A stretch of DNA of 17,017 bases from a virus (Monodnaviria; Loebvirae; Hofneiviricota; Faserviricetes; Tubulavirales; Inoviridae), in the IMG/VR virus record IMGVR_UViG_2721755645_000001; one strand, 5' to 3'. The position numbers and the translations under genes are program-made. The notes under the pieces are model-generated. The model was not told the origin of the DNA and ran no database searches. It saw only the letters and a list, made by a program, of their open reading frames with translations. The first letter of the stretch is position 1. Every line of letters starts with the position of its first letter. Below are positions 1,031 to 17,017 of this stretch, in pieces.

Positions 1031-1116
1031 TTTATAATCCTCAAAGATATGCCATTAATATGTCTGAGTTGATGAAAATCACACCGCTTTTACAGTCGTT
1101 TTCCACGGTGGAGTTA

Positions 1117-1536: not shown

Positions 1537-1578
1537 CCTTTTGATCCTTTTTCACTGTTCAAAATTCGCACAATAAAG

Positions 1579-1607: not shown

Positions 1608-1635
1608 TGTCTCATTCCTGAGACTGTTAATCCTT

Positions 1636-2082: not shown

Positions 2083-2253
2083 CTACTTGGCTCCATCTTA
2101 ACAGTGGTTTTTCAATAGTTAGATTTGATGCTCATTTCTGACAATTTAAACATTGCAAATGTATTGACTGTCAGATCTGAGCATATTACATTGTGACCAT
2201 TCAATCTGCTCACAAATGACTATTGACACATATTTTGATGGGTGTGACTACTT
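2083..2253. promoter_or_regulatory. Divergent promoter/operator region between the repressor and replication genes
   Basis: Rightward sigma70-like candidate: -35 TTGACT (2164..2169), 17-bp spacer, -10 TACATT (2187..2192). Overlapping palindromes TGACTGTCA (2165..2173) and TCAGATCTGA (2171..2180) and further TGAC repeats are candidate repressor sites. Confidence 0.45.
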
Positions 2254-3306
2254 ATGATCGACTGGTTTACCGGAATCCTGCCTTGCACACACCGACCGTT
2301 ACCGGCTGGTAGTGTCGTCAGCGTCGATGCTGACGGTGCAGTGGAGTGGGAAACAGTAAAACGGTTGACCGTTCGCGGTTCGCATGAGTCCACAATGAAA
2401 GTAAGGTCTGTTGGATCTGATGGTGAAGGTCGGGCAACACATCTCTACATTGACGGTAATCCATCAAAGTTTTTGCAAGGTCACTCTGTTATCGGTTCCG
2501 ACGATTTGCAAGGGTTGGTGTTAACAGCTTACGCCAGAATATTGGCATTACTGCATATTCCTCATGATCTACCATCCTATCGGCAGGTCATGAAAGGGCA
2601 ATTTAAGATCTCGCGCATCGATATCAATTACATGTATTCATTGTCAACATTAGAAAATGTCCGCGCATGGTTATATGCCGCAGAATTTAAAGCTAAAACT
2701 CGCCACGGTCGCGCCTGTAGTAAAGGTGGCACTGTTTACTTAGGGAAAAACTCCCGTCGTTGGAGCCTGAAATTTTATTCAAAATATGATGAGCATACAT
2801 CTGGCAAAAAAGGGCACCAGATGGCAGACGAATTCGTTAAAGCTGGTTTACTGGACTGGTCAAAAGATAAATTACGCATTGAATTAACATTAAGAACAAC
2901 TGAATTAATTGATTTGAATCTTACGCTTGGTAATAGCTGGAATATTGAGACGCCCAATAAATTATTCTCTGACTATGTAGGGAGAATAGAAATGAATCAA
3001 AATACTATATTAACTGATGAAAAAATAATTAATCTCCCAAGAAAAATACAGTCTACATATTTATTGTGGAAGCAGGGCGCGAACATGAAAGAGATGTTAC
3101 CGAAACCTACATTCTACCGACACCGTAAAGAATTACTTTCTTTCGGAATAGATATTAACTTTTATTGTGAGTCACCGGATTCTAATAACGTTGTTCCGTT
3201 GGTTCGTACTCTTGAAGCCAAACCAGCCAAAATTCCATCATGGGTTTATGAGAAAGGTTTAATTTTCGATTATAACCGTATTTCACATGCCAGTAACTGG
3301 CATTAA
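2254..3306 (+). CDS. Putative rolling-circle replication initiation protein (gene II / RstA-like)
   Basis: 350-aa ORF, first gene of the plus-strand module and divergent from the repressor, as in Ff and CTX-type phages; assignment by synteny and size only, no catalytic motif verified. Confidence 0.55.
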   Translation: MIDWFTGILPCTHRPLPAGSVVSVDADGAVEWETVKRLTVRGSHESTMKVRSVGSDGEGRATHLYIDGNPSKFLQGHSVIGSDDLQGLVLTAYARILALLHIPHDLPSYRQVMKGQFKISRIDINYMYSLSTLENVRAWLYAAEFKAKTRHGRACSKGGTVYLGKNSRRWSLKFYSKYDEHTSGKKGHQMADEFVKAGLLDWSKDKLRIELTLRTTELIDLNLTLGNSWNIETPNKLFSDYVGRIEMNQNTILTDEKIINLPRKIQSTYLLWKQGANMKEMLPKPTFYRHRKELLSFGIDINFYCESPDSNNVVPLVRTLEAKPAKIPSWVYEKGLIFDYNRISHASNWH

Positions 3307-3317
3307 AGGAGAGTGAT

Positions 3318-3635
3318 ATGTCTAATTATGGTCTTTTTGTAAAAGGTAAAATGCTTGGTGCTCGCCAGCGTAATAAGGTCAATGGTCAGGGATACTATAA
3401 TGAAATTGGTGTTGGCTTAGAGATTCCTGATGGTTTTGGCGGCACTAAGCAAGACCAGATTATTATTCGTGTATCTCAGGCTCTTGTTAATGCCGGTGTA
3501 ATGAATCAGGCAAATAATTTTATCGGTAAGTTAGTCCAGATACCTGTATATGTTCGCGTCTGGTCAATGGAGGGGAGGGAAGGAGTAACTTATAACATTT
3601 CATCAGATGGCGGCATTACTGAAATAAAAGGCTGA
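3318..3635 (+). CDS. Putative ssDNA-binding protein (gene V / RstB-like)
   Basis: 105-aa ORF directly after the replication gene; strong AAGGAGAG Shine-Dalgarno; position matches gV in Ff synteny. Confidence 0.45.
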   Translation: MSNYGLFVKGKMLGARQRNKVNGQGYYNEIGVGLEIPDGFGGTKQDQIIIRVSQALVNAGVMNQANNFIGKLVQIPVYVRVWSMEGREGVTYNISSDGGITEIKG

Positions 3636-3637
3636 TT

Positions 3638-3889
3638 ATGGATACATCAGGTTTCGATATTCAGTTTGATAATCATATTCCTGAAAATGGTTACCGTATT
3701 GAAGGTTATTTATGTAATGCGAACAATGCAAAAGAATGTCAGGCAATAATGGTACGTTCTGAACCATTTCATCAAATTGATTATTCTGCAATGGGAAATT
3801 ACTGGACATTAGGTTTTGGCTCTGTCCTGCTGCTCTGGCTTTTTTCTGTAGGTGTGGGACAGGTAATAAAGATGGTTCGTACTGCTTGA
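3638..3889 (+). CDS. Small protein with a C-terminal hydrophobic segment; possible minor coat or morphogenesis protein
   Basis: 83 aa, start 2 nt after the upstream stop; C-terminal segment WTLGFGSVLLLWLFSVGVGQVI; position corresponds to gVII/gIX in Ff order. Confidence 0.4.
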   Translation: MDTSGFDIQFDNHIPENGYRIEGYLCNANNAKECQAIMVRSEPFHQIDYSAMGNYWTLGFGSVLLLWLFSVGVGQVIKMVRTA

Positions 3890-3923
3890 ATGCGAACCTT
3901 TAAAATGTAATGGAGATAGAGTT

Positions 3924-4157
3924 ATGTTTAAAAAAATCGTTAGTTTTCTGGCTGTACCTGCATTAATGGCTGTTTCTGGCGCGACTTTCGCTGCAGAAGG
4001 AGCGGCATCAAGTGGTGTTGATTTATCGCCGCTGACGAACAGCATTGATTTCAGTACAGTTCTGGTTGCGATTATGGCCGTTGCTGCTTCACTGGTAACA
4101 CTTTATGCCGGTGTCGCTGGCGTTCGCTGGGTATTGCGTACCGTTAAATCCGCATAA
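3924..4157 (+). CDS. Major coat protein (gene VIII-like)
   Basis: 77 aa; signal peptide MFKKIVSFLAVPALMAVSGATFA with AXA-type cleavage, acidic mature N-terminus, hydrophobic core and basic C-terminus (RWVLRTVKSA); GGAGA Shine-Dalgarno; strong terminator follows. Confidence 0.75.
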   Translation: MFKKIVSFLAVPALMAVSGATFAAEGAASSGVDLSPLTNSIDFSTVLVAIMAVAASLVTLYAGVAGVRWVLRTVKSA

Positions 4158-4170
4158 ATTCATTATTCAT

Positions 4171-4195
4171 GGGCGATGCAATATCGCCCGTTTTA
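4171..4195 (+). terminator. Rho-independent terminator after the coat gene
   Basis: Stem GGGCGAT (4171..4177) / ATCGCCC (4183..4189) with a 5-nt loop, followed by GTTTTA; matches the position of the gVIII terminator in Ff phages. Confidence 0.7.
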
Positions 4196-4221
4196 CTTGA
4201 GGTTATTATGGAGATTGAATT

Positions 4222-5934
4222 ATGGAAATTGGGTTCCCTTTTATGGGGGATCGTCTCAGCTTATGTCGTTATTCTTGGGCTAAGAGGCTGACGGTTTATT
4301 CCTTTATTTTTTCCTTTCTCTGGGTTTCCTTTCCCCGATATTCATATTCATTTGTACCAGCAATTGCAGCAGTGGCTGCGCGGGCTGTTATTCCTAAAGT
4401 CGTTGGCCGGGTGCTTGTTCGTCGCTTTGCTGCCAATGATGCGATTTATACGGCATCACAGCTTACAGCAACCCGTGTTTTTGTTGGCCGCGCTGCGGCT
4501 AATGCTGCCGAATACTTGCCTGCTGCCTCATCATACAAAATGAGCGGTGTTGCAACGTGGGCGGGTATTGCTGCTGCTGTATCATCTTTTGTTCCGTCTT
4601 CTTTGAGTTCATCTGACGGCTCGGTAATGGTAATGACTAACGGTAAAAAGATTTCCGATAATTTATATGAAGTAACGTACAGTGGTCAAAGTGGTGAAAG
4701 TAAGACGATAACCGTTAATTTTGAACCACAGGAATTAAGTCCGGTAATCCTTCATGTTAGTCGTAATAATGTGGATGCGGGTTCTCCAGTTGTAGGTGTT
4801 GAAACAGGATATTCCACGCCAGATAATGCACTTTATTATTATCAGGATTCGAAAGAGCTAATTTATTACTATGGTGATAATCCAACTGAAATTGCCAGAA
4901 ATTATCTTAATGACTATAACTCGCGTACTTATACTGAAACACTAACGAATTTTGAACGCACTGTGACGAATAAAGTTGTCAACAGTAATGGAGATGTCTC
5001 CTTTACTGAACAGAATTATAAGTTTACTTATCCTTCCTCATTTTATGAAATTCCTGAGATTACACACTTGTATAGCAACCCGGCCGCATCTTCATTTCCC
5101 GCAGGTATTCCCATGTATGAAAATGTAGCAGGGCTTCCCATGTATTACAGCGTTGCTTATTTAACAGCAGGAAAGCAATATCAGTATCACAACACGCCTT
5201 GTAAAACGACTAATCAGTCAAATGGTGGATATTCGACGATTTGCGCCGTTCCTGAAAAAGAGGATTACACCACAAAAGATATTGATGAAAAGAGTGAGCT
5301 TACTATCTGGACCAATACCAAATATAAAGCCATGACGGAAGTACTGGAGGCCGGAAATATTGAGTCCATGATTGATTATCTGGAGTATCTTGATAGTGTT
5401 AGTGTATCGCCAGCACTTCTTGCCGACATGATTAACGAGCTGTGGTCTGAAGCTGCCGTTAATGCCGATTATAACGGCTTACCGTTTAAAGAGGTTTCAC
5501 CGGCTGAAGTAACTTCTGCGATGTCGGAACTTAGGCTATCTCCAACGTTATTAGATATGCTTTCACCTGTATCTGACAGTGCAGGGGCTGACGTCAATAT
5601 TGATATTACCATTAATAACAACTCAGGATCTGACACTGGAAATAATGGCAATATAGATTTGGGAGAAGATCCCGGTGTAAAAGAGCCTGAGCTTGAAGAA
5701 ACGCCAACGGCAAGAGATATTTTAACGCCAATTATTAACTTGTTGCCTTTTACAAACGAATTTAACATCGGCTCTCGTTCAGCATCCTGCCCCGTTGTTG
5801 AATTCAGCGTGTTTAATCACCAGTACAGAATTGACTCCCATTGTCCGTTAATTGAGCAGAACAGAAGCGCCGTAGAAACCATATTTCTGATTATATGGGG
5901 ATTTGTTGCGCTCCGTATTATTCTTAGTGCCTAA
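4222..5934 (+). CDS. Minor coat / adsorption protein (gene III-like)
   Basis: 570 aa; signal-like hydrophobic N-terminal segment, Gly/Ser/Asn-rich linker (NNNSGSDTGNNGN) and C-terminal membrane anchor (IFLIIWGFVALRIILSA); the true start may be the internal ATG at 4243. Confidence 0.65.
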   Translation: MEIGFPFMGDRLSLCRYSWAKRLTVYSFIFSFLWVSFPRYSYSFVPAIAAVAARAVIPKVVGRVLVRRFAANDAIYTASQLTATRVFVGRAAANAAEYLPAASSYKMSGVATWAGIAAAVSSFVPSSLSSSDGSVMVMTNGKKISDNLYEVTYSGQSGESKTITVNFEPQELSPVILHVSRNNVDAGSPVVGVETGYSTPDNALYYYQDSKELIYYYGDNPTEIARNYLNDYNSRTYTETLTNFERTVTNKVVNSNGDVSFTEQNYKFTYPSSFYEIPEITHLYSNPAASSFPAGIPMYENVAGLPMYYSVAYLTAGKQYQYHNTPCKTTNQSNGGYSTICAVPEKEDYTTKDIDEKSELTIWTNTKYKAMTEVLEAGNIESMIDYLEYLDSVSVSPALLADMINELWSEAAVNADYNGLPFKEVSPAEVTSAMSELRLSPTLLDMLSPVSDSAGADVNIDITINNNSGSDTGNNGNIDLGEDPGVKEPELEETPTARDILTPIINLLPFTNEFNIGSRSASCPVVEFSVFNHQYRIDSHCPLIEQNRSAVETIFLIIWGFVALRIILSA

Positions 5935-5946
5935 AGGAGTGCAACT

Positions 5947-6147
5947 ATGTTTGGGATTCTGATTAGTGCATTAAATACTTTGTTAGGTTTTGTATTCCGG
6001 TCATTGATTATTAAATTCGTCGTATTCTTTGCGCTGTATTTTGTAGTCCAGGGCTTCGTTGATATACGGGGAAAAAATAATGAAAAAGATTTTACTCGCA
6101 TTAACGCTACTATTTTCTTCATGTGCTTTCGCAGGGTCAGAGCTTGA
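5947..6147 (+). pseudogene. Truncated gene VI-like ORF; 3' end removed by the 1183-bp deletion in copy 1
   Basis: First 38 codons identical to the 95-aa ORF at 13681..13968, then the frame diverges after the deletion junction (6062|6063) and runs into the gIV region. Confidence 0.7.
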
Positions 6148-7324
6148 ATTAAATAAAGTCAAGCTACCGGAGGCTATTTCTCTTATTTACAGTGAGGTGC
6201 TTAAAGTCCCGTATATGCTAGATCCACAGCTTGTTAATGATGAACGAATGATTACATTCAGGTTAACATCTGATATTGATGAACGGGAATTTGTAACCCG
6301 TTATCTTGGCAATATGAACATTCGAATATGGACGAAAAAGGGTGTTGATTTTATCGCGCCCTATACGCCGAAAGAGCCGGTTAAGCCACGTTATACATGG
6401 ACTTATACGCCTCAGTACCGTTCTGTTGCCTACCTGTCTGATATTCTTGGCGGCTACGTTTCAGGCTCCTTCAATAACAGTGGAGCCGTGATTTCTGACG
6501 ATTCGCTAAAAGGTTCATCAGGGGCAAGCAACTACATCAATCGAACCGGTGATATTCTGGTTTATTATGGTACGAAAGAGGATATCGCCATCCTGAAAAC
6601 ACTGGTCACTTCGCTGGATACGATGAGTGATGAAGTGGTTGTTTCTGGTTATGTTTTTGAGGTTCAGACCTCGCAGTCTGACGGCTCCGGCATTCTTTTA
6701 GCGGCTAAAATTCTGTCTGATAAATTCAATATTTCAGTTGGTGCTGCCGGACTGGATAATTTTATCAATATTCGAACCGGCTCCATTGATGCCATTTTCA
6801 ATCTGCTGAAAACCGACAGTCGTTTTACTGTTGTCAGTGCGCCACGACTGCGGGTAAAAAATAATGCCTCAGCGTCTTTTTCAGTCGGCTCTGATGTGCC
6901 AGTACTGGGCAGTGTTACGGTGAATAACAATACGACAACGCAATCCGTTGAATATCGTTCCAGCGGTGTTTTGTTTAACGTGACGCCATCAATCAAAAGT
7001 CGGACAATGGATCTCAAGATTCAGCAGCAGCTTTCCAACTTTGTGACCACTGAAACCGGCGTCAATAACTCGCCAACCCTTATCAAGCGTGATGTAACAA
7101 CCGAAGTCAGCCTTGCAGATGGTGATATTATTTTACTTGGTGGCCTTGCTGAACAGAAAGACAGTAAGGCCAGTTCCGGCTGGAGCTTCTTCGGTTCCCG
7201 TACCAGTGAAAGCAACAAGACTGATATTATGGTGATGCTTCAGGTCAGAAAGGTTGACCGGAGCAGGGCGACGCCCCGCAGCGCCGCGAGGAGCGGTGAA
7301 CTGTTCCGGGACAACCTGAACTGA
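6080..7324 (+). CDS. Secretin (gene IV-like outer-membrane export channel), copy 1
   Basis: 414 aa from the ATG at 6080; signal peptide MKKILLALTLLFSSCAFA; C-terminal secretin-like motif DGDIILLGGL. The ORF-track start at 6059 is an in-frame ATG created by the deletion junction. Confidence 0.8.
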   Translation: MKKILLALTLLFSSCAFAGSELELNKVKLPEAISLIYSEVLKVPYMLDPQLVNDERMITFRLTSDIDEREFVTRYLGNMNIRIWTKKGVDFIAPYTPKEPVKPRYTWTYTPQYRSVAYLSDILGGYVSGSFNNSGAVISDDSLKGSSGASNYINRTGDILVYYGTKEDIAILKTLVTSLDTMSDEVVVSGYVFEVQTSQSDGSGILLAAKILSDKFNISVGAAGLDNFINIRTGSIDAIFNLLKTDSRFTVVSAPRLRVKNNASASFSVGSDVPVLGSVTVNNNTTTQSVEYRSSGVLFNVTPSIKSRTMDLKIQQQLSNFVTTETGVNNSPTLIKRDVTTEVSLADGDIILLGGLAEQKDSKASSGWSFFGSRTSESNKTDIMVMLQVRKVDRSRATPRSAARSGELFRDNLN

Positions 7325-7736
7325 TTGTATGGATTTTTATTATGGCGTTAACTTTTATGGGGTATGAACAGTACGACATCTTTTTGTTGCTGTCCGGGGT
7401 TGGCCAAGCCGTACAGTTTCCATTTTCAGCGTTATGGCTGATTCGGCGCGGCAGCATTCATCGGGCCTTATCATGGAAAAATTCATGACACATCAGGAGC
7501 ATGGTGATTGGTGATGGCACTGAAGAAGTGGTGTTTGATTCTCGTGTATCAGGTACAGATTTACCAACTAACTGGATGAACAGGCCTGATTGGTGAGGTC
7601 AGGCCGTTCACTTACTGCTGACAGACATTTGATTCTGATTCGTTTGGAGAAACGGATGATTTTGAATCACTGTCGATAGTAGCCAGTTGACGGCCAGTGT
7701 CAACGATTCCCGCCAGATTCTGCCATCCTTACCATT

Positions 7737-7768
7737 GGTGCGCATAATGTCAACGCGTTATGTTGAAA
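7737..7768. other. dif-like XerC/XerD site at the junction between the tandem prophage copies
   Basis: Same 32-bp sequence as 3..34, lying exactly at the copy 1 / copy 2 boundary. Confidence 0.6.
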
Positions 7769-7802
7769 AGGCCGCTGCGAAAATCGAATCCCGCAGCGGC
7801 CT
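7769..7802 (-). terminator. Rho-independent terminator candidate (copy 2 equivalent)
   Basis: Same hairpin as 35..68. Confidence 0.5.
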
Positions 7803-7834
7803 CTTTAGCATAACGTCATTGTGCGAACCAATAG

Positions 7835-8764
7835 CTACTTTTTCGTATAACTCTCTTCGCATTTAGCCAAAAACAGCAGATTAGTAGCGGTTAAATGAAG
7901 GGTATAACTCGCTAAATACTCAGGAACTTTTGTTATTTCTGCCCCTTGTCCATGTCCACCTTCTTTATTTCGAATGGTTGGAATACCACTCTCAAGTAGA
8001 ATTCTTATTGAAGAAAATTGATTCTGGAGGTATTCAGGTACTAAATTATTTGCCAAACAACTGTTAATTAGTTTTTTAGCTGTGTCAGTATCATTAAATT
8101 GCCAAGAATGTTTTTTATGTATGGCTTTCATTAGACTTTCAAAAGATTTGAGGCAATCATTTAAACATTCTTTATATCGCTGATGTCTATAATGCTCATG
8201 GGCGGATAAAAACTCATCGTTTGCTCCGTTATAACTCTTGTTCTTACCAAGAATCTGAAGCGTAGGCTTTACAACATCAGAATGAATGAATTGTGAGTCA
8301 ACTTTAACCAACTCTCCTGACTCAAATTGATATCCAAGACCTGCTTCTTTAAACCTGATATTAAGTTCTTCAATAGCATCATCAGGACTTTGCTTTACTA
8401 ACCCTCTGAATTTCCACTCATTTGATCTTATATACCCGTCTATCAGTTTGAAACATATCTCAATGATATCCAAGCATTTTTCATGATCTCTCTCAGCTAG
8501 GAAATAGTCAAAAATTGCCCCGAAATTCGATTCAGGATACTGTTTGAGAGAGAATACACCATATTCCTTACACAGCGTTTTATGAACGAGTCTGTAAAGC
8601 TTACTTGCTTCCGTTTCATAGTCACTATCTTCACCGATAGTATCTCTTACAATATGAACAACCTGAACACGAAATGCATTTGGTATATTCGTGTATTGGT
8701 AAACATCAGCTACTTCACCTCTTAATTTTTTTTGTCTTTTTGAAAATAATTCGAATATAGCCAA
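7835..8764 (-). CDS. Hypothetical 309-aa cargo protein (copy 2), possible HEPN-type C-terminus
   Basis: Identical translation to 101..1030. Confidence 0.75.
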   Translation of the reverse strand: MAIFELFSKRQKKLRGEVADVYQYTNIPNAFRVQVVHIVRDTIGEDSDYETEASKLYRLVHKTLCKEYGVFSLKQYPESNFGAIFDYFLAERDHEKCLDIIEICFKLIDGYIRSNEWKFRGLVKQSPDDAIEELNIRFKEAGLGYQFESGELVKVDSQFIHSDVVKPTLQILGKNKSYNGANDEFLSAHEHYRHQRYKECLNDCLKSFESLMKAIHKKHSWQFNDTDTAKKLINSCLANNLVPEYLQNQFSSIRILLESGIPTIRNKEGGHGQGAEITKVPEYLASYTLHLTATNLLFLAKCEESYTKK

Positions 8765-8850
8765 TTTATAATCCTCAAAGATATGCCATTAATATGTCTG
8801 AGTTGATGAAAATCACACCGCTTTTACAGTCGTTTTCCACGGTGGAGTTA

Positions 8851-9270
8851 TCAGTAATATGAGTTTCTTCTGTGCCACCAATAAAGAAGTCCGTATCCAA
8901 TGATAAGAATTCCGAAAAACATCAACGACATTCCCCAGCCAGTTCCGTACCACGAAACCATATCATCGAAAACCAACCCACCCATTTCACGTACTCCGGC
9001 AGCTTCCTTAAGAATTGGTTTGAATACCGGAATCAGAAGGGCGATCGCCAGTGGAGCACCCCAGCGAACAAGACCTGTTTCCATTTTGATCCCGAAAAAG
9101 ATCCCCGCTCCGACAGCAAGCAACCAGACTACCAGGCCAGGCGCAGTTTCCAGTGCTGTTTGCCATTCAACATCGAAAGTTTTCATTAGCCAGGCAACAA
9201 CTGCCAGACAGAAAGCAAATACGCCGACGACAACCAGTTCAACGCCGCTTGTTTCGTTATTTCTACTCAT
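8851..9270 (-). CDS. Small integral membrane protein (copy 2)
   Basis: Identical translation to 1117..1536. Confidence 0.65.
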   Translation of the reverse strand: MSRNNETSGVELVVVGVFAFCLAVVAWLMKTFDVEWQTALETAPGLVVWLLAVGAGIFFGIKMETGLVRWGAPLAIALLIPVFKPILKEAAGVREMGGLVFDDMVSWYGTGWGMSLMFFGILIIGYGLLYWWHRRNSYY

Positions 9271-9312
9271 CCTTTTGATCCTTTTTCACTGTTCAAAATT
9301 CGCACAATAAAG

Positions 9313-9341
9313 AACGTGCAGTGTTGGTAATACTGCACGTT
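9313..9341 (-). terminator. Inverted repeat, candidate terminator or operator (copy 2)
   Basis: Same sequence as 1579..1607. Confidence 0.4.
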
Positions 9342-9369
9342 TGTCTCATTCCTGAGACTGTTAATCCTT

Positions 9370-9816
9370 TTACTCTTCTCCAGACACCGCTTTTTTCATA
9401 AACATTTTAGTACTGTAAGTGTATGAACTTAAGGCAGAAACTTGCCTTGCGAGTGCCAGAATATCTTGTTTTTCCAGTGTCCTGATGTTCCACACGATGA
9501 AATTATGTGCGTTAGTGGTTTCTTCATCAGTATATCCATCCGCAGAAGTGATTAGCTTCCGCTCGGTAGCTTCTTCTTTAACATCAAGAGCATAGCCATA
9601 AGCTAAGGTGTTTAAGTCTGCACCCGTAATTTTAGCTATCTGAATGATGTCACTGAATTTAGGTTCAGTTTTGCCGGACGCTATCCTGACCAGCGTACTC
9701 ACGCTAATGCCAGTCTTCTCGGCCAGTTCTTCATAAGTCGAGTGTTCCAGAATTACCTTTTTGATACGTTCTGCTCTCTGTTTGTCCGCCATAACTTCAT
9801 GCTCATTGTTGCCCAT
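9370..9816 (-). CDS. XRE-family HTH transcriptional regulator (copy 2)
   Basis: Identical translation to 1636..2082. Confidence 0.7.
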   Translation of the reverse strand: MGNNEHEVMADKQRAERIKKVILEHSTYEELAEKTGISVSTLVRIASGKTEPKFSDIIQIAKITGADLNTLAYGYALDVKEEATERKLITSADGYTDEETTNAHNFIVWNIRTLEKQDILALARQVSALSSYTYSTKMFMKKAVSGEE

Positions 9817-9987
9817 CTACTTGGCTCCATCTTAACAGTGGTTTTTCAATAGTTAGATTTGATGCTCATTTCTGACAATTTAAACATTGCAAATGTATTG
9901 ACTGTCAGATCTGAGCATATTACATTGTGACCATTCAATCTGCTCACAAATGACTATTGACACATATTTTGATGGGTGTGACTACTT
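9817..9987. promoter_or_regulatory. Divergent promoter/operator region (copy 2)
   Basis: Same sequence as 2083..2253. Confidence 0.45.
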
Positions 9988-11040
9988 ATGATCGACTGGT
10001 TTACCGGAATCCTGCCTTGCACACACCGACCGTTACCGGCTGGTAGTGTCGTCAGCGTCGATGCTGACGGTGCAGTGGAGTGGGAAACAGTAAAACGGTT
10101 GACCGTTCGCGGTTCGCATGAGTCCACAATGAAAGTAAGGTCTGTTGGATCTGATGGTGAAGGTCGGGCAACACATCTCTACATTGACGGTAATCCATCA
10201 AAGTTTTTGCAAGGTCACTCTGTTATCGGTTCCGACGATTTGCAAGGGTTGGTGTTAACAGCTTACGCCAGAATATTGGCATTACTGCATATTCCTCATG
10301 ATCTACCATCCTATCGGCAGGTCATGAAAGGGCAATTTAAGATCTCGCGCATCGATATCAATTACATGTATTCATTGTCAACATTAGAAAATGTCCGCGC
10401 ATGGTTATATGCCGCAGAATTTAAAGCTAAAACTCGCCACGGTCGCGCCTGTAGTAAAGGTGGCACTGTTTACTTAGGGAAAAACTCCCGTCGTTGGAGC
10501 CTGAAATTTTATTCAAAATATGATGAGCATACATCTGGCAAAAAAGGGCACCAGATGGCAGACGAATTCGTTAAAGCTGGTTTACTGGACTGGTCAAAAG
10601 ATAAATTACGCATTGAATTAACATTAAGAACAACTGAATTAATTGATTTGAATCTTACGCTTGGTAATAGCTGGAATATTGAGACGCCCAATAAATTATT
10701 CTCTGACTATGTAGGGAGAATAGAAATGAATCAAAATACTATATTAACTGATGAAAAAATAATTAATCTCCCAAGAAAAATACAGTCTACATATTTATTG
10801 TGGAAGCAGGGCGCGAACATGAAAGAGATGTTACCGAAACCTACATTCTACCGACACCGTAAAGAATTACTTTCTTTCGGAATAGATATTAACTTTTATT
10901 GTGAGTCACCGGATTCTAATAACGTTGTTCCGTTGGTTCGTACTCTTGAAGCCAAACCAGCCAAAATTCCATCATGGGTTTATGAGAAAGGTTTAATTTT
11001 CGATTATAACCGTATTTCACATGCCAGTAACTGGCATTAA
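9988..11040 (+). CDS. Putative replication initiation protein (copy 2)
   Basis: Identical translation to 2254..3306. Confidence 0.55.
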   Translation: MIDWFTGILPCTHRPLPAGSVVSVDADGAVEWETVKRLTVRGSHESTMKVRSVGSDGEGRATHLYIDGNPSKFLQGHSVIGSDDLQGLVLTAYARILALLHIPHDLPSYRQVMKGQFKISRIDINYMYSLSTLENVRAWLYAAEFKAKTRHGRACSKGGTVYLGKNSRRWSLKFYSKYDEHTSGKKGHQMADEFVKAGLLDWSKDKLRIELTLRTTELIDLNLTLGNSWNIETPNKLFSDYVGRIEMNQNTILTDEKIINLPRKIQSTYLLWKQGANMKEMLPKPTFYRHRKELLSFGIDINFYCESPDSNNVVPLVRTLEAKPAKIPSWVYEKGLIFDYNRISHASNWH

Positions 11041-11051
11041 AGGAGAGTGAT

Positions 11052-11369
11052 ATGTCTAATTATGGTCTTTTTGTAAAAGGTAAAATGCTTGGTGCTCGCC
11101 AGCGTAATAAGGTCAATGGTCAGGGATACTATAATGAAATTGGTGTTGGCTTAGAGATTCCTGATGGTTTTGGCGGCACTAAGCAAGACCAGATTATTAT
11201 TCGTGTATCTCAGGCTCTTGTTAATGCCGGTGTAATGAATCAGGCAAATAATTTTATCGGTAAGTTAGTCCAGATACCTGTATATGTTCGCGTCTGGTCA
11301 ATGGAGGGGAGGGAAGGAGTAACTTATAACATTTCATCAGATGGCGGCATTACTGAAATAAAAGGCTGA
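11052..11369 (+). CDS. Putative ssDNA-binding protein (copy 2)
   Basis: Identical translation to 3318..3635. Confidence 0.45.
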   Translation: MSNYGLFVKGKMLGARQRNKVNGQGYYNEIGVGLEIPDGFGGTKQDQIIIRVSQALVNAGVMNQANNFIGKLVQIPVYVRVWSMEGREGVTYNISSDGGITEIKG

Positions 11370-11371
11370 TT

Positions 11372-11623
11372 ATGGATACATCAGGTTTCGATATTCAGTT
11401 TGATAATCATATTCCTGAAAATGGTTACCGTATTGAAGGTTATTTATGTAATGCGAACAATGCAAAAGAATGTCAGGCAATAATGGTACGTTCTGAACCA
11501 TTTCATCAAATTGATTATTCTGCAATGGGAAATTACTGGACATTAGGTTTTGGCTCTGTCCTGCTGCTCTGGCTTTTTTCTGTAGGTGTGGGACAGGTAA
11601 TAAAGATGGTTCGTACTGCTTGA
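11372..11623 (+). CDS. Small hydrophobic protein, possible minor coat protein (copy 2)
   Basis: Identical translation to 3638..3889. Confidence 0.4.
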   Translation: MDTSGFDIQFDNHIPENGYRIEGYLCNANNAKECQAIMVRSEPFHQIDYSAMGNYWTLGFGSVLLLWLFSVGVGQVIKMVRTA

Positions 11624-11657
11624 ATGCGAACCTTTAAAATGTAATGGAGATAGAGTT

Positions 11658-11891
11658 ATGTTTAAAAAAATCGTTAGTTTTCTGGCTGTACCTGCATTAA
11701 TGGCTGTTTCTGGCGCGACTTTCGCTGCAGAAGGAGCGGCATCAAGTGGTGTTGATTTATCGCCGCTGACGAACAGCATTGATTTCAGTACAGTTCTGGT
11801 TGCGATTATGGCCGTTGCTGCTTCACTGGTAACACTTTATGCCGGTGTCGCTGGCGTTCGCTGGGTATTGCGTACCGTTAAATCCGCATAA
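11658..11891 (+). CDS. Major coat protein (copy 2)
   Basis: Identical translation to 3924..4157. Confidence 0.75.
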   Translation: MFKKIVSFLAVPALMAVSGATFAAEGAASSGVDLSPLTNSIDFSTVLVAIMAVAASLVTLYAGVAGVRWVLRTVKSA

Positions 11892-11904
11892 ATTCATTAT
11901 TCAT

Positions 11905-11929
11905 GGGCGATGCAATATCGCCCGTTTTA
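11905..11929 (+). terminator. Rho-independent terminator after the coat gene (copy 2)
   Basis: Same sequence as 4171..4195. Confidence 0.7.
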
Positions 11930-11955
11930 CTTGAGGTTATTATGGAGATTGAATT

Positions 11956-13668
11956 ATGGAAATTGGGTTCCCTTTTATGGGGGATCGTCTCAGCTTATGT
12001 CGTTATTCTTGGGCTAAGAGGCTGACGGTTTATTCCTTTATTTTTTCCTTTCTCTGGGTTTCCTTTCCCCGATATTCATATTCATTTGTACCAGCAATTG
12101 CAGCAGTGGCTGCGCGGGCTGTTATTCCTAAAGTCGTTGGCCGGGTGCTTGTTCGTCGCTTTGCTGCCAATGATGCGATTTATACGGCATCACAGCTTAC
12201 AGCAACCCGTGTTTTTGTTGGCCGCGCTGCGGCTAATGCTGCCGAATACTTGCCTGCTGCCTCATCATACAAAATGAGCGGTGTTGCAACGTGGGCGGGT
12301 ATTGCTGCTGCTGTATCATCTTTTGTTCCGTCTTCTTTGAGTTCATCTGACGGCTCGGTAATGGTAATGACTAACGGTAAAAAGATTTCCGATAATTTAT
12401 ATGAAGTAACGTACAGTGGTCAAAGTGGTGAAAGTAAGACGATAACCGTTAATTTTGAACCACAGGAATTAAGTCCGGTAATCCTTCATGTTAGTCGTAA
12501 TAATGTGGATGCGGGTTCTCCAGTTGTAGGTGTTGAAACAGGATATTCCACGCCAGATAATGCACTTTATTATTATCAGGATTCGAAAGAGCTAATTTAT
12601 TACTATGGTGATAATCCAACTGAAATTGCCAGAAATTATCTTAATGACTATAACTCGCGTACTTATACTGAAACACTAACGAATTTTGAACGCACTGTGA
12701 CGAATAAAGTTGTCAACAGTAATGGAGATGTCTCCTTTACTGAACAGAATTATAAGTTTACTTATCCTTCCTCATTTTATGAAATTCCTGAGATTACACA
12801 CTTGTATAGCAACCCGGCCGCATCTTCATTTCCCGCAGGTATTCCCATGTATGAAAATGTAGCAGGGCTTCCCATGTATTACAGCGTTGCTTATTTAACA
12901 GCAGGAAAGCAATATCAGTATCACAACACGCCTTGTAAAACGACTAATCAGTCAAATGGTGGATATTCGACGATTTGCGCCGTTCCTGAAAAAGAGGATT
13001 ACACCACAAAAGATATTGATGAAAAGAGTGAGCTTACTATCTGGACCAATACCAAATATAAAGCCATGACGGAAGTACTGGAGGCCGGAAATATTGAGTC
13101 CATGATTGATTATCTGGAGTATCTTGATAGTGTTAGTGTATCGCCAGCACTTCTTGCCGACATGATTAACGAGCTGTGGTCTGAAGCTGCCGTTAATGCC
13201 GATTATAACGGCTTACCGTTTAAAGAGGTTTCACCGGCTGAAGTAACTTCTGCGATGTCGGAACTTAGGCTATCTCCAACGTTATTAGATATGCTTTCAC
13301 CTGTATCTGACAGTGCAGGGGCTGACGTCAATATTGATATTACCATTAATAACAACTCAGGATCTGACACTGGAAATAATGGCAATATAGATTTGGGAGA
13401 AGATCCCGGTGTAAAAGAGCCTGAGCTTGAAGAAACGCCAACGGCAAGAGATATTTTAACGCCAATTATTAACTTGTTGCCTTTTACAAACGAATTTAAC
13501 ATCGGCTCTCGTTCAGCATCCTGCCCCGTTGTTGAATTCAGCGTGTTTAATCACCAGTACAGAATTGACTCCCATTGTCCGTTAATTGAGCAGAACAGAA
13601 GCGCCGTAGAAACCATATTTCTGATTATATGGGGATTTGTTGCGCTCCGTATTATTCTTAGTGCCTAA
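11956..13668 (+). CDS. Minor coat / adsorption protein (copy 2)
   Basis: Identical translation to 4222..5934. Confidence 0.65.
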   Translation: MEIGFPFMGDRLSLCRYSWAKRLTVYSFIFSFLWVSFPRYSYSFVPAIAAVAARAVIPKVVGRVLVRRFAANDAIYTASQLTATRVFVGRAAANAAEYLPAASSYKMSGVATWAGIAAAVSSFVPSSLSSSDGSVMVMTNGKKISDNLYEVTYSGQSGESKTITVNFEPQELSPVILHVSRNNVDAGSPVVGVETGYSTPDNALYYYQDSKELIYYYGDNPTEIARNYLNDYNSRTYTETLTNFERTVTNKVVNSNGDVSFTEQNYKFTYPSSFYEIPEITHLYSNPAASSFPAGIPMYENVAGLPMYYSVAYLTAGKQYQYHNTPCKTTNQSNGGYSTICAVPEKEDYTTKDIDEKSELTIWTNTKYKAMTEVLEAGNIESMIDYLEYLDSVSVSPALLADMINELWSEAAVNADYNGLPFKEVSPAEVTSAMSELRLSPTLLDMLSPVSDSAGADVNIDITINNNSGSDTGNNGNIDLGEDPGVKEPELEETPTARDILTPIINLLPFTNEFNIGSRSASCPVVEFSVFNHQYRIDSHCPLIEQNRSAVETIFLIIWGFVALRIILSA

Positions 13669-13680
13669 AGGAGTGCAACT

Positions 13681-13968
13681 ATGTTTGGGATTCTGATTAG
13701 TGCATTAAATACTTTGTTAGGTTTTGTATTCCGGTCATTGATTATTAAATTCGTCGTATTCTTTGCGCTGTATTTTGTAGTCCAGGGCTTCGTTGAAATC
13801 CTTGTTGAGTTACTGCCAGATTCAAGCAATCTCTCATCGCTGTTTGCCAATTTATCAGACGGATTCTGGTACTTCATTAACCTGAGTAAATTACCACAGG
13901 GGATTAGTATGATTATCTCCGCAATGGCTACTCGTTTTATTATTCGACGTATTCCTGTTATAGGGTGA
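13681..13968 (+). CDS. Minor coat protein (gene VI-like)
   Basis: 95-aa hydrophobic protein with AAGGAG Shine-Dalgarno, lying between the gIII-like and gI-like genes as in Ff phages. Confidence 0.6.
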   Translation: MFGILISALNTLLGFVFRSLIIKFVVFFALYFVVQGFVEILVELLPDSSNLSSLFANLSDGFWYFINLSKLPQGISMIISAMATRFIIRRIPVIG

Positions 13969-13971
13969 GTT

Positions 13972-14997
13972 ATGGCTATTTCTGCATATATTGGCATACC
14001 CGGCTCAGGAAAAAGTTATGAAGCCGTTTGCAATGTCATTATTCCGGCATTTACCAGCGGCCGGAGAGTTGTGACGAACATTTATGGTTTACAAAAAGAT
14101 AAAATCACCGAACGTTATCCTGATGCAACGGGAGAAATTATTGTTGTGGATAATGATGATGTGCTTAAAGCAGATTTCTTTCCTTTTAAAGGTGGGGAAG
14201 GGAGCTTTTGCCAGTTTGGTGATTTAATTGTTATTGATGAAGCATGGCGAATCTTCGGTAGCGATAAGGATATGACGGCTGAGAAGAAATCATTTATTGC
14301 TGAACATCGTCATTTTACGCACCCTGAAACGGGTATTAGCTGTGATTTGGTTATTGTAAATCAGTCACTTTCTAATATTGCTCGCTTTCTGAAAGACAAA
14401 ATAGAAACAACTTACCGGATGCGCAAGCTGAAAGCGTTGGGCCTGAATAATCATTACTGCATTGACGTATATTCAGGCCACAAAATCTATAAAAGCAACC
14501 TCGTCACCAGTTATCGCAATAAATATAACCCTGATATTTTTGAACTTTACAAAAGTTATGAAGGAAATAACGGTAATGAAAAGCAGACAGATAAACGCCA
14601 GAGCATCTGGAATTCTGGCAAAGTCAGGTTCTTTCTTGTGCTTTTTCCATTGATGTTTATCGGGTCAGGCTGGCTGATTTACTCATTTTTCAGCACGTTT
14701 GGCCGAAGCGATCCCTCGCCAGATTTGACTACAACAGATGTACGTGATGCGGCCATGTTTCGTTCTTCCGCTGCTACTCCAGCACCAGATACTCCCTCAG
14801 AACCAGCTGAACCGCCACTTTCAACCGAGTGGCGTATATCAGGGAGAATGACCAGTGAAGGCAGGGCGTTTGTGATTCTTGTTAATGGTGCCGGTGTTTT
14901 GCGTGCCGTTCCTGCATCCAGTTTTAATTACAAAGGGATGTTGATGAGCGGAATTATTGATGGTGAGCGTGTGACGCTTTATACGGGGAAAAAATAA
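13972..14997 (+). CDS. Assembly ATPase (gene I / Zot-like)
   Basis: 341 aa; Walker A GIPGSGKSY at the N-terminus, Walker B-like LIVIDEAW, C-terminal TM segment (FFLVLFPLMFIGSGWLIYSFF); stop overlaps the gIV start (TAATG). Present only in copy 2. Confidence 0.8.
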   Translation: MAISAYIGIPGSGKSYEAVCNVIIPAFTSGRRVVTNIYGLQKDKITERYPDATGEIIVVDNDDVLKADFFPFKGGEGSFCQFGDLIVIDEAWRIFGSDKDMTAEKKSFIAEHRHFTHPETGISCDLVIVNQSLSNIARFLKDKIETTYRMRKLKALGLNNHYCIDVYSGHKIYKSNLVTSYRNKYNPDIFELYKSYEGNNGNEKQTDKRQSIWNSGKVRFFLVLFPLMFIGSGWLIYSFFSTFGRSDPSPDLTTTDVRDAAMFRSSAATPAPDTPSEPAEPPLSTEWRISGRMTSEGRAFVILVNGAGVLRAVPASSFNYKGMLMSGIIDGERVTLYTGKK

Positions 14998-16241
14998 TGA
15001 AAAAGATTTTACTCGCATTAACGCTACTATTTTCTTCATGTGCTTTCGCAGGGTCAGAGCTTGAATTAAATAAAGTCAAGCTACCGGAGGCTATTTCTCT
15101 TATTTACAGTGAGGTGCTTAAAGTCCCGTATATGCTAGATCCACAGCTTGTTAATGATGAACGAATGATTACATTCAGGTTAACATCTGATATTGATGAA
15201 CGGGAATTTGTAACCCGTTATCTTGGCAATATGAACATTCGAATATGGACGAAAAAGGGTGTTGATTTTATCGCGCCCTATACGCCGAAAGAGCCGGTTA
15301 AGCCACGTTATACATGGACTTATACGCCTCAGTACCGTTCTGTTGCCTACCTGTCTGATATTCTTGGCGGCTACGTTTCAGGCTCCTTCAATAACAGTGG
15401 AGCCGTGATTTCTGACGATTCGCTAAAAGGTTCATCAGGGGCAAGCAACTACATCAATCGAACCGGTGATATTCTGGTTTATTATGGTACGAAAGAGGAT
15501 ATCGCCATCCTGAAAACACTGGTCACTTCGCTGGATACGATGAGTGATGAAGTGGTTGTTTCTGGTTATGTTTTTGAGGTTCAGACCTCGCAGTCTGACG
15601 GCTCCGGCATTCTTTTAGCGGCTAAAATTCTGTCTGATAAATTCAATATTTCAGTTGGTGCTGCCGGACTGGATAATTTTATCAATATTCGAACCGGCTC
15701 CATTGATGCCATTTTCAATCTGCTGAAAACCGACAGTCGTTTTACTGTTGTCAGTGCGCCACGACTGCGGGTAAAAAATAATGCCTCAGCGTCTTTTTCA
15801 GTCGGCTCTGATGTGCCAGTACTGGGCAGTGTTACGGTGAATAACAATACGACAACGCAATCCGTTGAATATCGTTCCAGCGGTGTTTTGTTTAACGTGA
15901 CGCCATCAATCAAAAGTCGGACAATGGATCTCAAGATTCAGCAGCAGCTTTCCAACTTTGTGACCACTGAAACCGGCGTCAATAACTCGCCAACCCTTAT
16001 CAAGCGTGATGTAACAACCGAAGTCAGCCTTGCAGATGGTGATATTATTTTACTTGGTGGCCTTGCTGAACAGAAAGACAGTAAGGCCAGTTCCGGCTGG
16101 AGCTTCTTCGGTTCCCGTACCAGTGAAAGCAACAAGACTGATATTATGGTGATGCTTCAGGTCAGAAAGGTTGACCGGAGCAGGGCGACGCCCCGCAGCG
16201 CCGCGAGGAGCGGTGAACTGTTCCGGGACAACCTGAACTGA
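14997..16241 (+). CDS. Secretin (gene IV-like), copy 2
   Basis: Same 414-aa protein; GGGGA Shine-Dalgarno; start overlaps the gene I stop. Confidence 0.85.
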   Translation: MKKILLALTLLFSSCAFAGSELELNKVKLPEAISLIYSEVLKVPYMLDPQLVNDERMITFRLTSDIDEREFVTRYLGNMNIRIWTKKGVDFIAPYTPKEPVKPRYTWTYTPQYRSVAYLSDILGGYVSGSFNNSGAVISDDSLKGSSGASNYINRTGDILVYYGTKEDIAILKTLVTSLDTMSDEVVVSGYVFEVQTSQSDGSGILLAAKILSDKFNISVGAAGLDNFINIRTGSIDAIFNLLKTDSRFTVVSAPRLRVKNNASASFSVGSDVPVLGSVTVNNNTTTQSVEYRSSGVLFNVTPSIKSRTMDLKIQQQLSNFVTTETGVNNSPTLIKRDVTTEVSLADGDIILLGGLAEQKDSKASSGWSFFGSRTSESNKTDIMVMLQVRKVDRSRATPRSAARSGELFRDNLN

Positions 16242-16329
16242 TTGTATGGATTTTTATTATGGCGTTAACTTTTATGGGGTATGAACAGTACGACATCTTC
16301 TAGGTATTCAGTTACTTAGAGGATTTATT

Positions 16330-16578
16330 ATGTCTGTAAAAAATAAGGCGCGTGACCGACTTCCCGGTGGCCGCCTTAAGTCTTATCGTCGTGTAGGTTC
16401 ACATTTTGCCAGTTGTGCCAGATGGTTTGATAAATCGCCGTCCTGGTATCGCAATATGATGATGACCAGGCCTGAGCGCCGTGAAGTCAGAAGGCTTCTC
16501 AATCAGGTAATGCGTGGTCATGATGCTGACGGCATTGCTTTTCCGGTCAGTCATCGTCCGTTTGTTTATTGGTGGTGA
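16330..16578 (+). CDS. Hypothetical small basic protein (82 aa, Arg-rich), copy 2 only
   Basis: ORF with GAGGA Shine-Dalgarno 6 nt upstream; lies inside a 373-bp segment (about 16300..16672) that is absent from copy 1; no recognisable motif. Confidence 0.5.
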   Translation: MSVKNKARDRLPGGRLKSYRRVGSHFASCARWFDKSPSWYRNMMMTRPERREVRRLLNQVMRGHDADGIAFPVSHRPFVYWW

Positions 16579-17017
16579 ATTTCGTACGCACGAAATTTCA
16601 CGCATAAACACCAGACAAAAAATCGTTAACTGTCTGTTTTGAAAGATAACGCCGGTCAGTGACAAAACTTGTTTTGTTGCTGTCCGGGGTTGGCCAAGCC
16701 GTACAGTTTCCATTTTCAGCGTTATGGCTGATTCGGCGCGGCAGCATTCATCGGGCCTTATCATGGAAAAATTCATGACACATCAGGAGCATGGTGATGG
16801 CACTGAAGAAGTGGTGTTTGATTCTCGTGTATCAGGTACAGATTTACCAACTAACTGGATGAACAGGCCTGATTGGTGAGGTCAGGCCGTTCACTTACTG
16901 CTGACAGACATTTGATTCTGATTCGTTTGGAGAAACGGATGATTTTGAATCACTGTCGATAGTAGCCAGTTGACGGCCAGTGTCAACGATTCCCGCCAGA
17001 TTCTGCCATCCTTACCA

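Follow-up and report, generated by a model that had tools for sequence, protein, structure and literature searches.

In the attenuation leaders of cat-86, cmlA and ermC, drug-induced stalling of the ribosome on a short leader opens a hairpin that sequesters the Shine-Dalgarno (SD) sequence of the next gene. TnaC stalls at a UGA stop codon, and the six-codon upstream open reading frame (uORF) MAGDIS of the eukaryotic, mammalian AdoMetDC gene confers polyamine-dependent pausing at termination. In the tap-repA system of plasmid R1 and in hok/mok, both of them carried by mobile elements, a small upstream frame must be translated to open the structure over the main ribosome binding site (RBS), and the sequence of the leader peptide is not known to matter in tap or mok. 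PepNL, a 14-codon uORF, encodes a nascent peptide that prevents release at its stop codon, with an effect on the downstream gene, and it acts with release factor 2 (RF2) at UGA (PMC11890864). Here we describe a locus of comparable layout in a 17,017-nucleotide (nt) stretch of DNA from the Inoviridae (IMG/VR virus record IMGVR_UViG_2721755645_000001; hereafter the window, meaning the whole stretch). The window contains two head-to-tail filamentous prophage copies at dif, and the second copy carries, between its gIV secretin gene and the attachment site, a gene for an 82-residue Arg-rich protein (ORF82) that is preceded by a short leader ORF and a predicted SD-masking hairpin.

The gene itself has been seen before. 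A review of the Yersinia pestis phage YpfΦ places two ORFs, YPO2280a and YPO2281, next to attR "with no predictable functions" and names the function of these attR-side ORFs as an open question (Derbise and Carniel 2014, PMC4266046); it describes no leader ORF, hairpin or wider protein family for them. ORF82 is most likely YPO2280a, a name that we assign by position, and it is already catalogued as an unexplained ORF of YpfΦ and CUS-1; the Y. pestis prophage encodes the same 82-residue protein at the same site, after gIV and before the attR-side dif. What appears to be new is a family-wide cassette of leader peptide, SD-masking hairpin and small basic protein, which we infer to join a known regulatory principle to an uncharacterised protein family. 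Our overall reading, to which we assign a probability of roughly 60%, is that the window holds a conserved cassette in which leader and hairpin gate the translation of ORF82, and that the lack of this cassette in the first prophage copy is a derived state.

A conserved cassette at the attR side

The 372-base-pair (bp) stretch that is present only in copy 2 forms the main part of a conserved accessory cassette. In filamentous phages of the CUS-1/YpfΦ type, which use XerCD to integrate at dif, this cassette occupies the dif-proximal end. The parts of the cassette, as read from the sequence, are a 14-codon leader, a putative hairpin and the 82-residue basic protein (Table 1). The left junction of the copy-2-only stretch (16299/16300) falls in the last sense codon of the leader (Phe, 16298-16300) and cuts a conserved upstream mini-ORF, and the boundaries of the stretch are therefore not those of the gene unit, which starts upstream of it, at 16259.

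An earlier note on this DNA, made from the letters alone, had proposed that the stretch contains a well-formed gene with a GAGGA SD sequence, and both the gene and its signals stand: the SD sequence lies at 16320-16324, 5 nt upstream of the ATG, and conservation together with the ratio of nonsynonymous to synonymous substitution rates (dN/dS) marks the frame as a real gene. That note had also said that a lack of conservation would speak against the gene; the frame is 82 codons long in all 13 genomic loci checked, its products are 59-100% identical, and pairwise dN/dS values of 0.10-0.26 indicate purifying selection. The median ratio of nonsynonymous to synonymous polymorphism (pN/pS) is 0.21 in the ORF82 frame and 1.3-1.7 in four of the five other frames, the fifth, an antisense frame in the same codon phase as ORF82, having a value of 0.40. 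An antisense ORF of 125 codons (16399-16776) was considered and dropped, since it is closed in some relatives and the coding signal lies in the sense frame; a match in Pseudomonas (L019 in our set of loci) was likewise dropped, lying inside a 960-residue ORF.

Salmonella, Pantoea, Brenneria, Morganella, Xenorhabdus and Pectobacterium have homologues of exactly 82 residues, with 68-98% identity. The Y. pestis prophage (L004) encodes a protein that is 100% identical over all 82 residues, after gIV and 535 bp before attP. In Xenorhabdus phages, ORF82 is the best conserved gene of the set compared, with 59-70% identity to the window protein as against 26-48% for gIV and about 42% for gI. A dif- or attP-like site follows the gene at a distance of 20-1943 bp in 15 of 15 loci, with the orientation unchanged. 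The loci of Pantoea, Brenneria and Erwinia are remnants, no other phage gene having been detected in these three; the Erwinia remnant has only a partial ORF82 match, and the Pantoea and Brenneria copies are intact.

A leader peptide conserved across mobile elements

Alignment of the upstream DNA places a mini-ORF before ORF82 in every close relative, with the pattern M-x4-5-G-Y-E-Q-[Y/L/Q]-D-I-F-stop, and the leader in the window ends in GYEQYDIF followed by a stop codon. Leaders of distant relatives read MMLYWYRSLDIF, MHYLDQDIF, ...AYQEMDIF, MTNQVWSFAKDIF and MDYYAEDIF, each with a stop directly after, and that of a still more distant plasmid reads MYLLQEHF before its stop. Ninety-seven further loci were drawn from metagenomes and viral contigs with a narrower alignment of 8 sequences. 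An exact Asp-Ile-Phe (DIF) ending 19-32 nt before the main start is found in 69 of 81 distinct upstream regions (0.16% in shuffles), and 6 further regions have DIL, DFF or DFL. Leader length peaks at 13 codons (36 of 75), ATG accounts for 72 of 74 assigned starts, and a Tyr residue stands at position -7 in 69 of 74 leaders.

The pattern of variation within these leaders points to the peptide. Among the four conserved codons, the first two codon positions show an entropy of 0-0.38 bits, compared with 0.41-1.14 bits at position 3, the alternatives being GAC/GAT, ATC/ATT/ATA and TTC/TTT; such concentration at third positions is a signature of selection on the peptide. The codon after the leader Phe is TAG in 31, CAG in 22, TAA in 11 and another sense codon in 11 of 75 leaders, and never TGA. 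Where a sense codon follows, the frame continues in either phase for 35-356 nt with no conserved stop position, and conservation within the leader therefore stops at Phe. The leader and hairpin region is not covered by any Rfam family, and a literature search for leader and arrest peptides did not bring up this leader, a motif of this kind being hard to search by text. Separately, the region of the leader start (16249-16272) is complementary to two stretches beyond the ORF82 stop, within 16607-16653 (18 nt at 78% and 12 nt at 92%), which may represent a hok-like 5'-3' fold-back or chance, about 0.3-0.5 such pairs being expected in a region of this size.

A predicted hairpin that pairs the end of the leader with the ORF82 ribosome binding site

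The 5' arm of the hairpin comprises the Ile and Phe codons of the leader, its stop codon and 3 nt beyond, and the 3' arm includes the SD sequence of ORF82. RNAalifold, run on 12 close sequences, yields a 13-bp stem in which one pair shows a compensatory change on both sides, and an outer helix in which the GYE codons and the main AUG are paired. Family-wide, folds of the interval from the Asp codon to the main start have a median minimum free energy z-score of -4.2, and 96% of the sequences fall below -2. The 7 nt after the Phe codon occur in 39 different forms, and pairing of each 5' arm with its own 3' arm beat pairing with swapped partners in 2000 of 2000 permutations. This arm-swap permutation was used to assess covariation, a MAFFT alignment having placed the diverse 3' arms out of register. 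An SD-like tetramer is paired within the 3' arm in 59 of 67 sequences. Counted from the first base of the Phe codon, the geometry is constant: the 5' arm spans -4 to +8, the 3' arm begins at +14, the SD sequence lies at +20 and the main start at +29.

Table 1. Coordinates of the cassette and of other features in the window.
Feature	Position	Strand	Remarks
Leader mini-ORF	16259-16303	+	14 codons, MALTFMGYEQYDIF, TAG stop; starts 18 nt past the gIV stop
SD-sequestering hairpin	16295-16324	+	5' arm 16295-16306, AUCUUCUAGGUA; 3' arm 16313-16324, UACUUAGAGGAU
ORF82, 82-residue Arg-rich protein	16330-16578	+	WP_001399975.1; ATG start, C-terminal WW
Hairpin after ORF82	16578-16597	+	8 bp with 4-nt loop, AATTTCGT/ACGAAATT; arms 16578-16585 and 16590-16597
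Inverted repeat	16648-16691	+	21 nt per arm, 81% complementary, 2 nt between arms; also in Pantoea and Brenneria loci
Second accessory ORF, shortened	16775-16879	+	In-frame 93-bp deletion at 16790/16791
gIV secretin, gene upstream of the cassette	14997-16241	+
attP/attL region	7735-7832	+	Two inverted XerC/D-like sites, forked single-stranded DNA hairpin; same sequence at 1-98
Copy-2-only segment, 372 bp	16300-16671		1-bp T ambiguity; absent at 7381/7382 in copy 1
Second copy-2-only segment, 1183 bp	13797-14979		gVI 3' end and gI/zot; absent at 6062/6063 in copy 1
TGGTGAT tandem duplication	7502-7515		Copy 1 only, extra unit 7509-7515; exactly 127 nt after the 372-bp deletion junction
Copy-1 junction product	7342-7488	+	Leader ORF fused across 7381/7382; 48-codon frame

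A proposed translational gate

These elements suggest the following scheme. In free mRNA, the SD sequence of ORF82 would be base-paired and translation off. The footprint of a ribosome reaches about 15-16 nt past the first base of its P-site codon, so that a ribosome that pauses or terminates with the leader Phe codon in the P site would hold the whole 5' arm. Covering of the 5' arm would release the SD sequence, such that ORF82 would be made only when the leader is translated, and in proportion to the time that the ribosome dwells at DIF. In the manner of an arrest peptide, the nascent chain Tyr(-7)...Asp-Ile-Phe may itself set this dwell time. The locus has two features expected of a regulatory leader: a uORF conserved at the amino acid level, and a predicted pause site placed over an RBS-masking structure.

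A different scheme is that of plain translational coupling, in which the peptide would be irrelevant to regulation and the DIF and Tyr codons would be kept for RNA pairing or for the function of a free micropeptide. This is possible but, in our estimate, somewhat unlikely. In its favour, the nucleotides AUCUUC are complementary to the SD sequence, the GYE codons pair with the main AUG in the close set, and a stop codon directly follows DIF in 42 of 75 leaders, as in the coupling of tap-repA and mok-hok. Coupling does not readily account, however, for the confinement of variation to third codon positions across very different GC contents and 3' partners, examples being L036 (GAC AUA UUU, pairing with the start codon) and the GC-rich L023, nor for the position of Tyr(-7), which lies outside the SD-sequestering stem. 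It is also at odds with the leaders that have neither a stop after DIF nor a conserved stop position further on. Taken together, conservation of the peptide at the amino acid level, the lack of conservation past Phe and the presence there of only sense codons or stops readable by release factor 1 (RF1) favour an effect of the nascent peptide over plain coupling.

Several observations weigh against the gate as we propose it. Part of the DIF-coding nucleotides (AUCUUC) forms the anti-SD arm, and together with the GYE-AUG pairing this partly confounds the constraints on RNA and peptide. An obvious SD sequence of its own precedes the leader in only 46 of 75 cases, and in 33 of 75 no stop follows DIF, for which reason simple termination-reinitiation is not the general mechanism. 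Only about 13 nt would separate the main start from the leading edge of the paused ribosome, a closeness that might impede loading of the 30S subunit. As the loci were identified by similarity of the encoded protein, and as many of them are related, the counts given above do not represent independent events. Leader translation, stalling and SD unmasking are predictions, and the structural model of ORF82, which is of only moderate confidence, offers no clue to function.

Comparison with the described systems sets this locus apart in several respects. As in cat-86, cmlA and ermC, a short leader ORF lies over the 5' arm of a hairpin with the SD sequence of the next gene in its 3' arm, and the geometry would put a paused ribosome over the 5' arm; unlike them, it has the Tyr-x3-Asp-Ile-Phe motif, no known inducer and a gene other than a resistance gene, and it occurs on phages and plasmids of many taxa. 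The leaders resemble TnaC and PepNL in being short uORFs (here 13-14 codons, usually with a stop after DIF), and differ from them in that only UAG or UAA, never UGA, follows DIF, that a sense codon stands there in a third of cases, and that arrest is, here, a prediction. With tap-repA and hok/mok the locus would share a small upstream frame that opens a structure over the main RBS on mobile elements, yet no antisense RNA was found here and the leader peptide sequence is conserved. MAGDIS is also a short uORF, ending in Asp-Ile-x-stop; this resemblance is a lead and not evidence. The leader is possibly a new arrest peptide. We would put forward only tentatively the stronger proposal that Tyr-x3-Asp-Ile-Phe is a previously undescribed ribosome-arrest motif, acting at RF1-dependent termination or with a Gln codon in the A site, which senses the translation state of the host and switches on an Arg-rich effector, and which is used by phages, plasmids and integrative elements across the Proteobacteria. 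If it were correct, YPO2280a would be the best-placed experimental example of the motif.

The ORF82 protein family

Homology and structure searches with ORF82 retrieved many homologues and matched no known family or fold. There was no match in Pfam (at E<=1 for ORF82 and at E<=0.1 for 92 family members), PHROGs, NCBIfam, PADLOC or the sequences of the PDB, nor in Foldseek searches of the PDB and BFVD; weak matches to Prp4, JetB, DrmE and ribosomal protein S7 were set aside as noise. A profile search of 1.84 billion representative proteins found 153 at E<=0.001, of 49-146 residues, with the common C-terminal pattern PxWW...TRPxRR...G.D.D...FP...KPHxYYW. An AlphaFold model built with 92 sequences (predicted local distance difference test score, pLDDT, 77.7) has a basic N-terminal tail and one confident helix at residues 38-61; a model built with the 19 close sequences only was poor (pLDDT 51). 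The helix is single and amphipathic, and the Arg-rich sequence has no hydrophobic stretch. The suggestion of the earlier note that ORF82 is a DNA-binding or regulatory factor thus gains no support: no family or fold was matched, the model consists of one long helix, and neither a profile match nor the model indicates a helix-turn-helix (HTH) or winged helix.

The family is spread over varied elements. Relatives are found on integrative elements with tyrosine integrases, on plasmid-like contigs and on Salmonella IncFIB plasmids, and the contig of one relative has a run of small ORFs, a tRNA 3' end and an S-AdoMet-lyase-like gene, a layout that suggests the early region of a tailed phage. Judged by sequence, ORF82 belongs to a family of small Arg-rich proteins, as yet uncharacterised, whose members are carried by phages, plasmids and integrative elements. 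This spread disfavours a function specific to Xer recombination, and an accessory, host-directed factor fits it; ORF82 is most likely a binder of nucleic acid or of host machinery under tight translational control.

Among individual loci, a homologue is followed by an Rpn/YhgA-like recombination-promoting nuclease gene in two unrelated contexts, Pantoea piersonii (L005, 8747-11480) and a Salmonella IncFIB plasmid (L155, 5001-6360). The Pantoea homologue of L005 is preceded by a WapI-like immunity gene and lies 126 bp from dif, and no further phage genes were detected there. A distant homologue in a metagenomic contig whose layout is probably that of a tailed-phage early region (L026, about 8880-8930; the same stretch in L028) is accompanied by a mini-leader, MVRNIEAVFM and a stop, directly after an apparent tRNA gene 3' end (GGTTCAAATCC...CCA). 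An identical ORF82 sequence occurs at two places in a large Klebsiella pneumoniae plasmid (NZ_CP132684.1, 248 kb).

We consider it unlikely that ORF82 is a toxin-like or addiction element of a type I-like kind, kept off by leader and hairpin. Such a role would explain its lone survival next to dif, where the solitary copies of Pantoea, with its neighbours also checked, and of Brenneria are intact, and the tight sequestration of the SD sequence recalls the logic of mok/hok; relatives are, moreover, often found beside toxin-antitoxin (TA) modules (RelE, HigB, PIN, CcdAB, ParE, Fic and Phd/Doc). Against this role, ORF82 lacks the hydrophobic segment of the small membrane toxins of type I systems, no antitoxin or antisense promoter was identified, and no PADLOC or TA family was matched. 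A simple scan for promoter-like sites on the minus strand reading across 16259-16330 found none, and there was no Rfam match, both tests being insensitive. Remnants beside dif could also persist simply because deletions must spare dif. The second small ORF was rejected as an antitoxin partner: Pfam gave no match for it, and in the window it carries an internal deletion, ORF82 being intact.

Still less probable is that ORF82 serves as an accessory factor for Xer recombination at dif. XafT, the Xer activation factor of the Vibrio satellite TLCΦ, which contains DUF3653, is also a small protein of a dif-integrating element, and ORF82 is the last conserved gene before attP/dif and is better conserved than the morphogenesis genes. 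The two proteins nevertheless share no sequence or domain similarity, ORF82 having no match to DUF3653 or any other Pfam entry, and relatives of ORF82 are also present in elements that do not use dif for integration. Away from any dif site, homologues preceded by this leader lie in tyrosine-integrase elements, in plasmids and in the interior of long IMG/VR contigs classed as viral, and distant homologues without the DIF leader occur in a likely early-gene region of a tailed phage. In addition, a CTX-type folded attP requires catalysis by XerC only.

The difference between the two prophage copies

The window is an exact match, in reverse orientation, to the chromosome of Escherichia coli NGF-1 (NZ_CP016007.1) and crosses the origin of that record, whose position 1 corresponds to window position 16883. 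Self-comparison aligns 1-6062 with 7735-13796, 6063-7382 with 14980-16299, and 7382-7734 with 16672-17017, and all parts common to both copies are 100% identical. The earlier note had reported 373 bp in copy 2 with no counterpart in copy 1 and no flanking repeats that would mark a mobile insertion. The comparison agrees, apart from a length of 372 bp with one ambiguous T, and the junctions have no terminal repeats and only this 1-nt microhomology; the 1183-bp junction in copy 1 has no microhomology. The right junction of the 372-bp segment (16671/16672) falls at the apex of the 21-nt inverted repeat.

Whether the segment was gained by copy 2 or lost from copy 1 is answered by related prophages. 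Of 5426 complete E. coli genomes, 119 were matched by a 601-bp probe across the segment, 97 of these along 80% or more of the probe, and the segment is also present in both copies of the sister strain NC101, in the Y. pestis prophage, in other Enterobacterales and in a 9,565-bp extrachromosomal circle of E. coli TUM14759; it is the common state across genomes and, therefore, not an insertion. A mobile insertion, which the earlier note had also thought improbable, has nothing in its favour beyond presence in one copy, and we give it virtually no credence: there are no terminal inverted or direct repeats, no target duplication and no transposase, the only ORF is that of the 82-residue protein, the left end cuts a conserved leader ORF, and the same sequence stands at the same place in about 97 E. 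coli genomes, Y. pestis and the circle. The comparative data already refute such an insertion. A probe for the copy-1 junction was contiguous only in NGF-1 and split by about 370 bp in every other listed genome of the 5426 searched, and the junction of the 1183-bp (gI) deletion was likewise found only in NGF-1. The absence in copy 1 is thus a derived state private to the NGF-1 record. The proposal of the earlier note that a gene was lost from copy 1 stands as to the ancestral state; as to the loss, it may be a product of assembly.

A recent deletion and a scaffolding artefact are, in our view, about equally likely. According to its genome announcement, NGF-1 was sequenced with 2x250-bp Illumina reads at 22x and assembled with SPAdes 3.7.1; the resulting 51 contigs were linked up by means of Projector2/Ragout, manual end joining and PCR. 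From a short-read, reference-scaffolded assembly, the copy difference is either a private deletion or an artefact. On the latter account, which has an even chance of being correct, NGF-1 would really have at least two full copies like NC101, and short contigs placed once during reference-guided scaffolding or manual end joining would give rise to both the 372-bp and the 1183-bp "deletions". A tandem repeat of 9.3 kb cannot be counted or phased with reads of 250 bp. Each of the two junctions occurs in just one of the 5426 complete genomes, that of NGF-1, and NC101, which matches NGF-1 at 100% over the compared flanks, has two intact copies. The complete identity of the parts common to both copies, the location of the record origin inside the array (16883/16884) and the confinement of all phage differences between NGF-1 and NC101 to the 1183-bp copy-2-only piece point the same way. 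NGF-1 also lacks 656 bp of chromosome 381 bp past the array that at least 37 genomes, NC101 included, carry in full. Finally, the largest default k of SPAdes for 250-bp reads is 127, and the exact 127-nt spacing between the 372-bp junction and the 7-bp duplication may trace the assembly graph. A real deletion, on the other hand, is suggested by the clean junctions, which contain no Ns and must have been backed by some sequence, and by hairpins at both ends of the 372-bp segment: its left end falls in the 5' arm of the leader hairpin and its right end at the apex of the 21-nt repeat, which makes a plausible substrate for slippage in a single-stranded DNA (ssDNA) replicon. Defective deletion genomes are common among filamentous phages, and a k-mer signature for the 1183-bp deletion was sought and not found.

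The NC101 counterpart of the 656-bp gap lies at L001 19199-19854, this being a third private gap of NGF-1 near its record origin. The differences between the phages of NGF-1 copy 2 and NC101 (3 single-nucleotide polymorphisms and a 15-bp indel in zot) all lie within 375 bp (14556-14931), and the other 8.9 kb are identical. Klebsiella spallanzanii (L017, 9803-10150) has a rearranged array in which part of gIV and the C-terminal 50 codons of ORF82 adjoin gVIII just before dif; this is an independent internal deletion in such tandem prophages. In the CTXφ model, copying of virion DNA begins at the origin of the upstream prophage and ends at that of the downstream prophage, and if the NGF-1 deletion is real, this model would predict an array that yields only genomes without gI and the cassette. 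More generally, copy differences between tandem prophages in short-read "complete" genomes should be given no biological interpretation without read-level support.

Genomic setting of the cassette

The proteins of the window phage are 99-100% identical to those of the Y. pestis prophage by tblastn, which places the element, from its sequence, among the CUS-1/YpfΦ-type dif-integrating filamentous elements (integrative mobile elements exploiting Xer, IMEX); a megablast of the whole phage against a phage collection gave no match. The inovirus gene order is present (gII, gV, coat genes, gIII, gVI, gI(zot), gIV). RefSeq annotation of the same DNA lists, as inovirus genes, replication protein II/X, a gV-like DNA-binding protein, coat proteins, a gVI-like DUF2523 protein, a zot-like gI and a GspD-like secretin, and three leftward genes, one of them an HTH repressor.

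Each prophage copy starts with TTGGTGCGCATAATGTCAACGCGTTATGTTGAAA, and attL and attP have GGTGCGCATAATGT in common with dif. The chromosomal dif follows the end of the window, and in NC101 a perfect 28-nt dif lies 3 nt beyond the array, from which it follows that the element integrated at dif. The folded attP of two inverted XerC/D-like sites is the arrangement described for YpfΦ, and paired sites of this kind also occur in related loci; as ssDNA, the interval 7700-7850 folds into the forked stem of a CTX-type attP (z = -6.9). An attP within the 372-bp segment was ruled out, as the folded attP lies outside it.

The first leftward phage gene (7835-8764 and 101-1030, both on the minus strand) encodes a 309-residue protein with AbiJ N-terminal domain 4 and DUF7014, weak HEPN and Abi_C matches, and a match to the PADLOC candidate PDC-S32; it is likely to be abortive-infection or defence cargo of the filamentous phage. 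YpfΦ has other genes at this end. A circular copy of the phage that carries ORF82 is deposited as an "untypable plasmid" of E. coli TUM14759 (L156, NZ_CP128883.1, 9,565 bp) and presumably represents the replicative form.

Downstream of ORF82, the hairpin that the earlier note had described as a 7-bp stem with a 6-nt spacer is real, with a stem of 8 bp and a loop of 4 nt; it begins at the last base of the stop codon, and no T-run follows. The larger inverted repeat may act as a terminator or as an element of the ssDNA, for instance a minus-strand origin or a packaging signal, and the region after ORF82 folds better than shuffles as ssDNA (z = -4.7). The second attR-side ORF, probably YPO2281, has 65 codons in UTI89, the Y. 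pestis phage and TUM14759 and a 93-bp deletion in the phages of NGF-1 and NC101 (compare L025, 2143-2234). The 7-bp duplication of copy 1 occurs at the same spot as this deletion, which looks like a local hotspot.

Significance

The fitness in animals of Y. pestis and of extraintestinal E. coli has been linked to YpfΦ and CUS-1, and the attR-side ORFs of these phages have long been unexplained. The present analysis offers an entry point, in that, across divergent dif-integrating inoviruses, no gene is better conserved than one of these ORFs, which would be placed under an elaborate, family-wide translational gate. The leader cassette makes this ORF directly testable, by toeprinting and with reporters. 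Beyond these phages, a conserved leader of 13-14 codons with a fixed C-terminal tripeptide recurs on mobile elements of diverse kinds and may prove to be a new nascent-peptide regulator.

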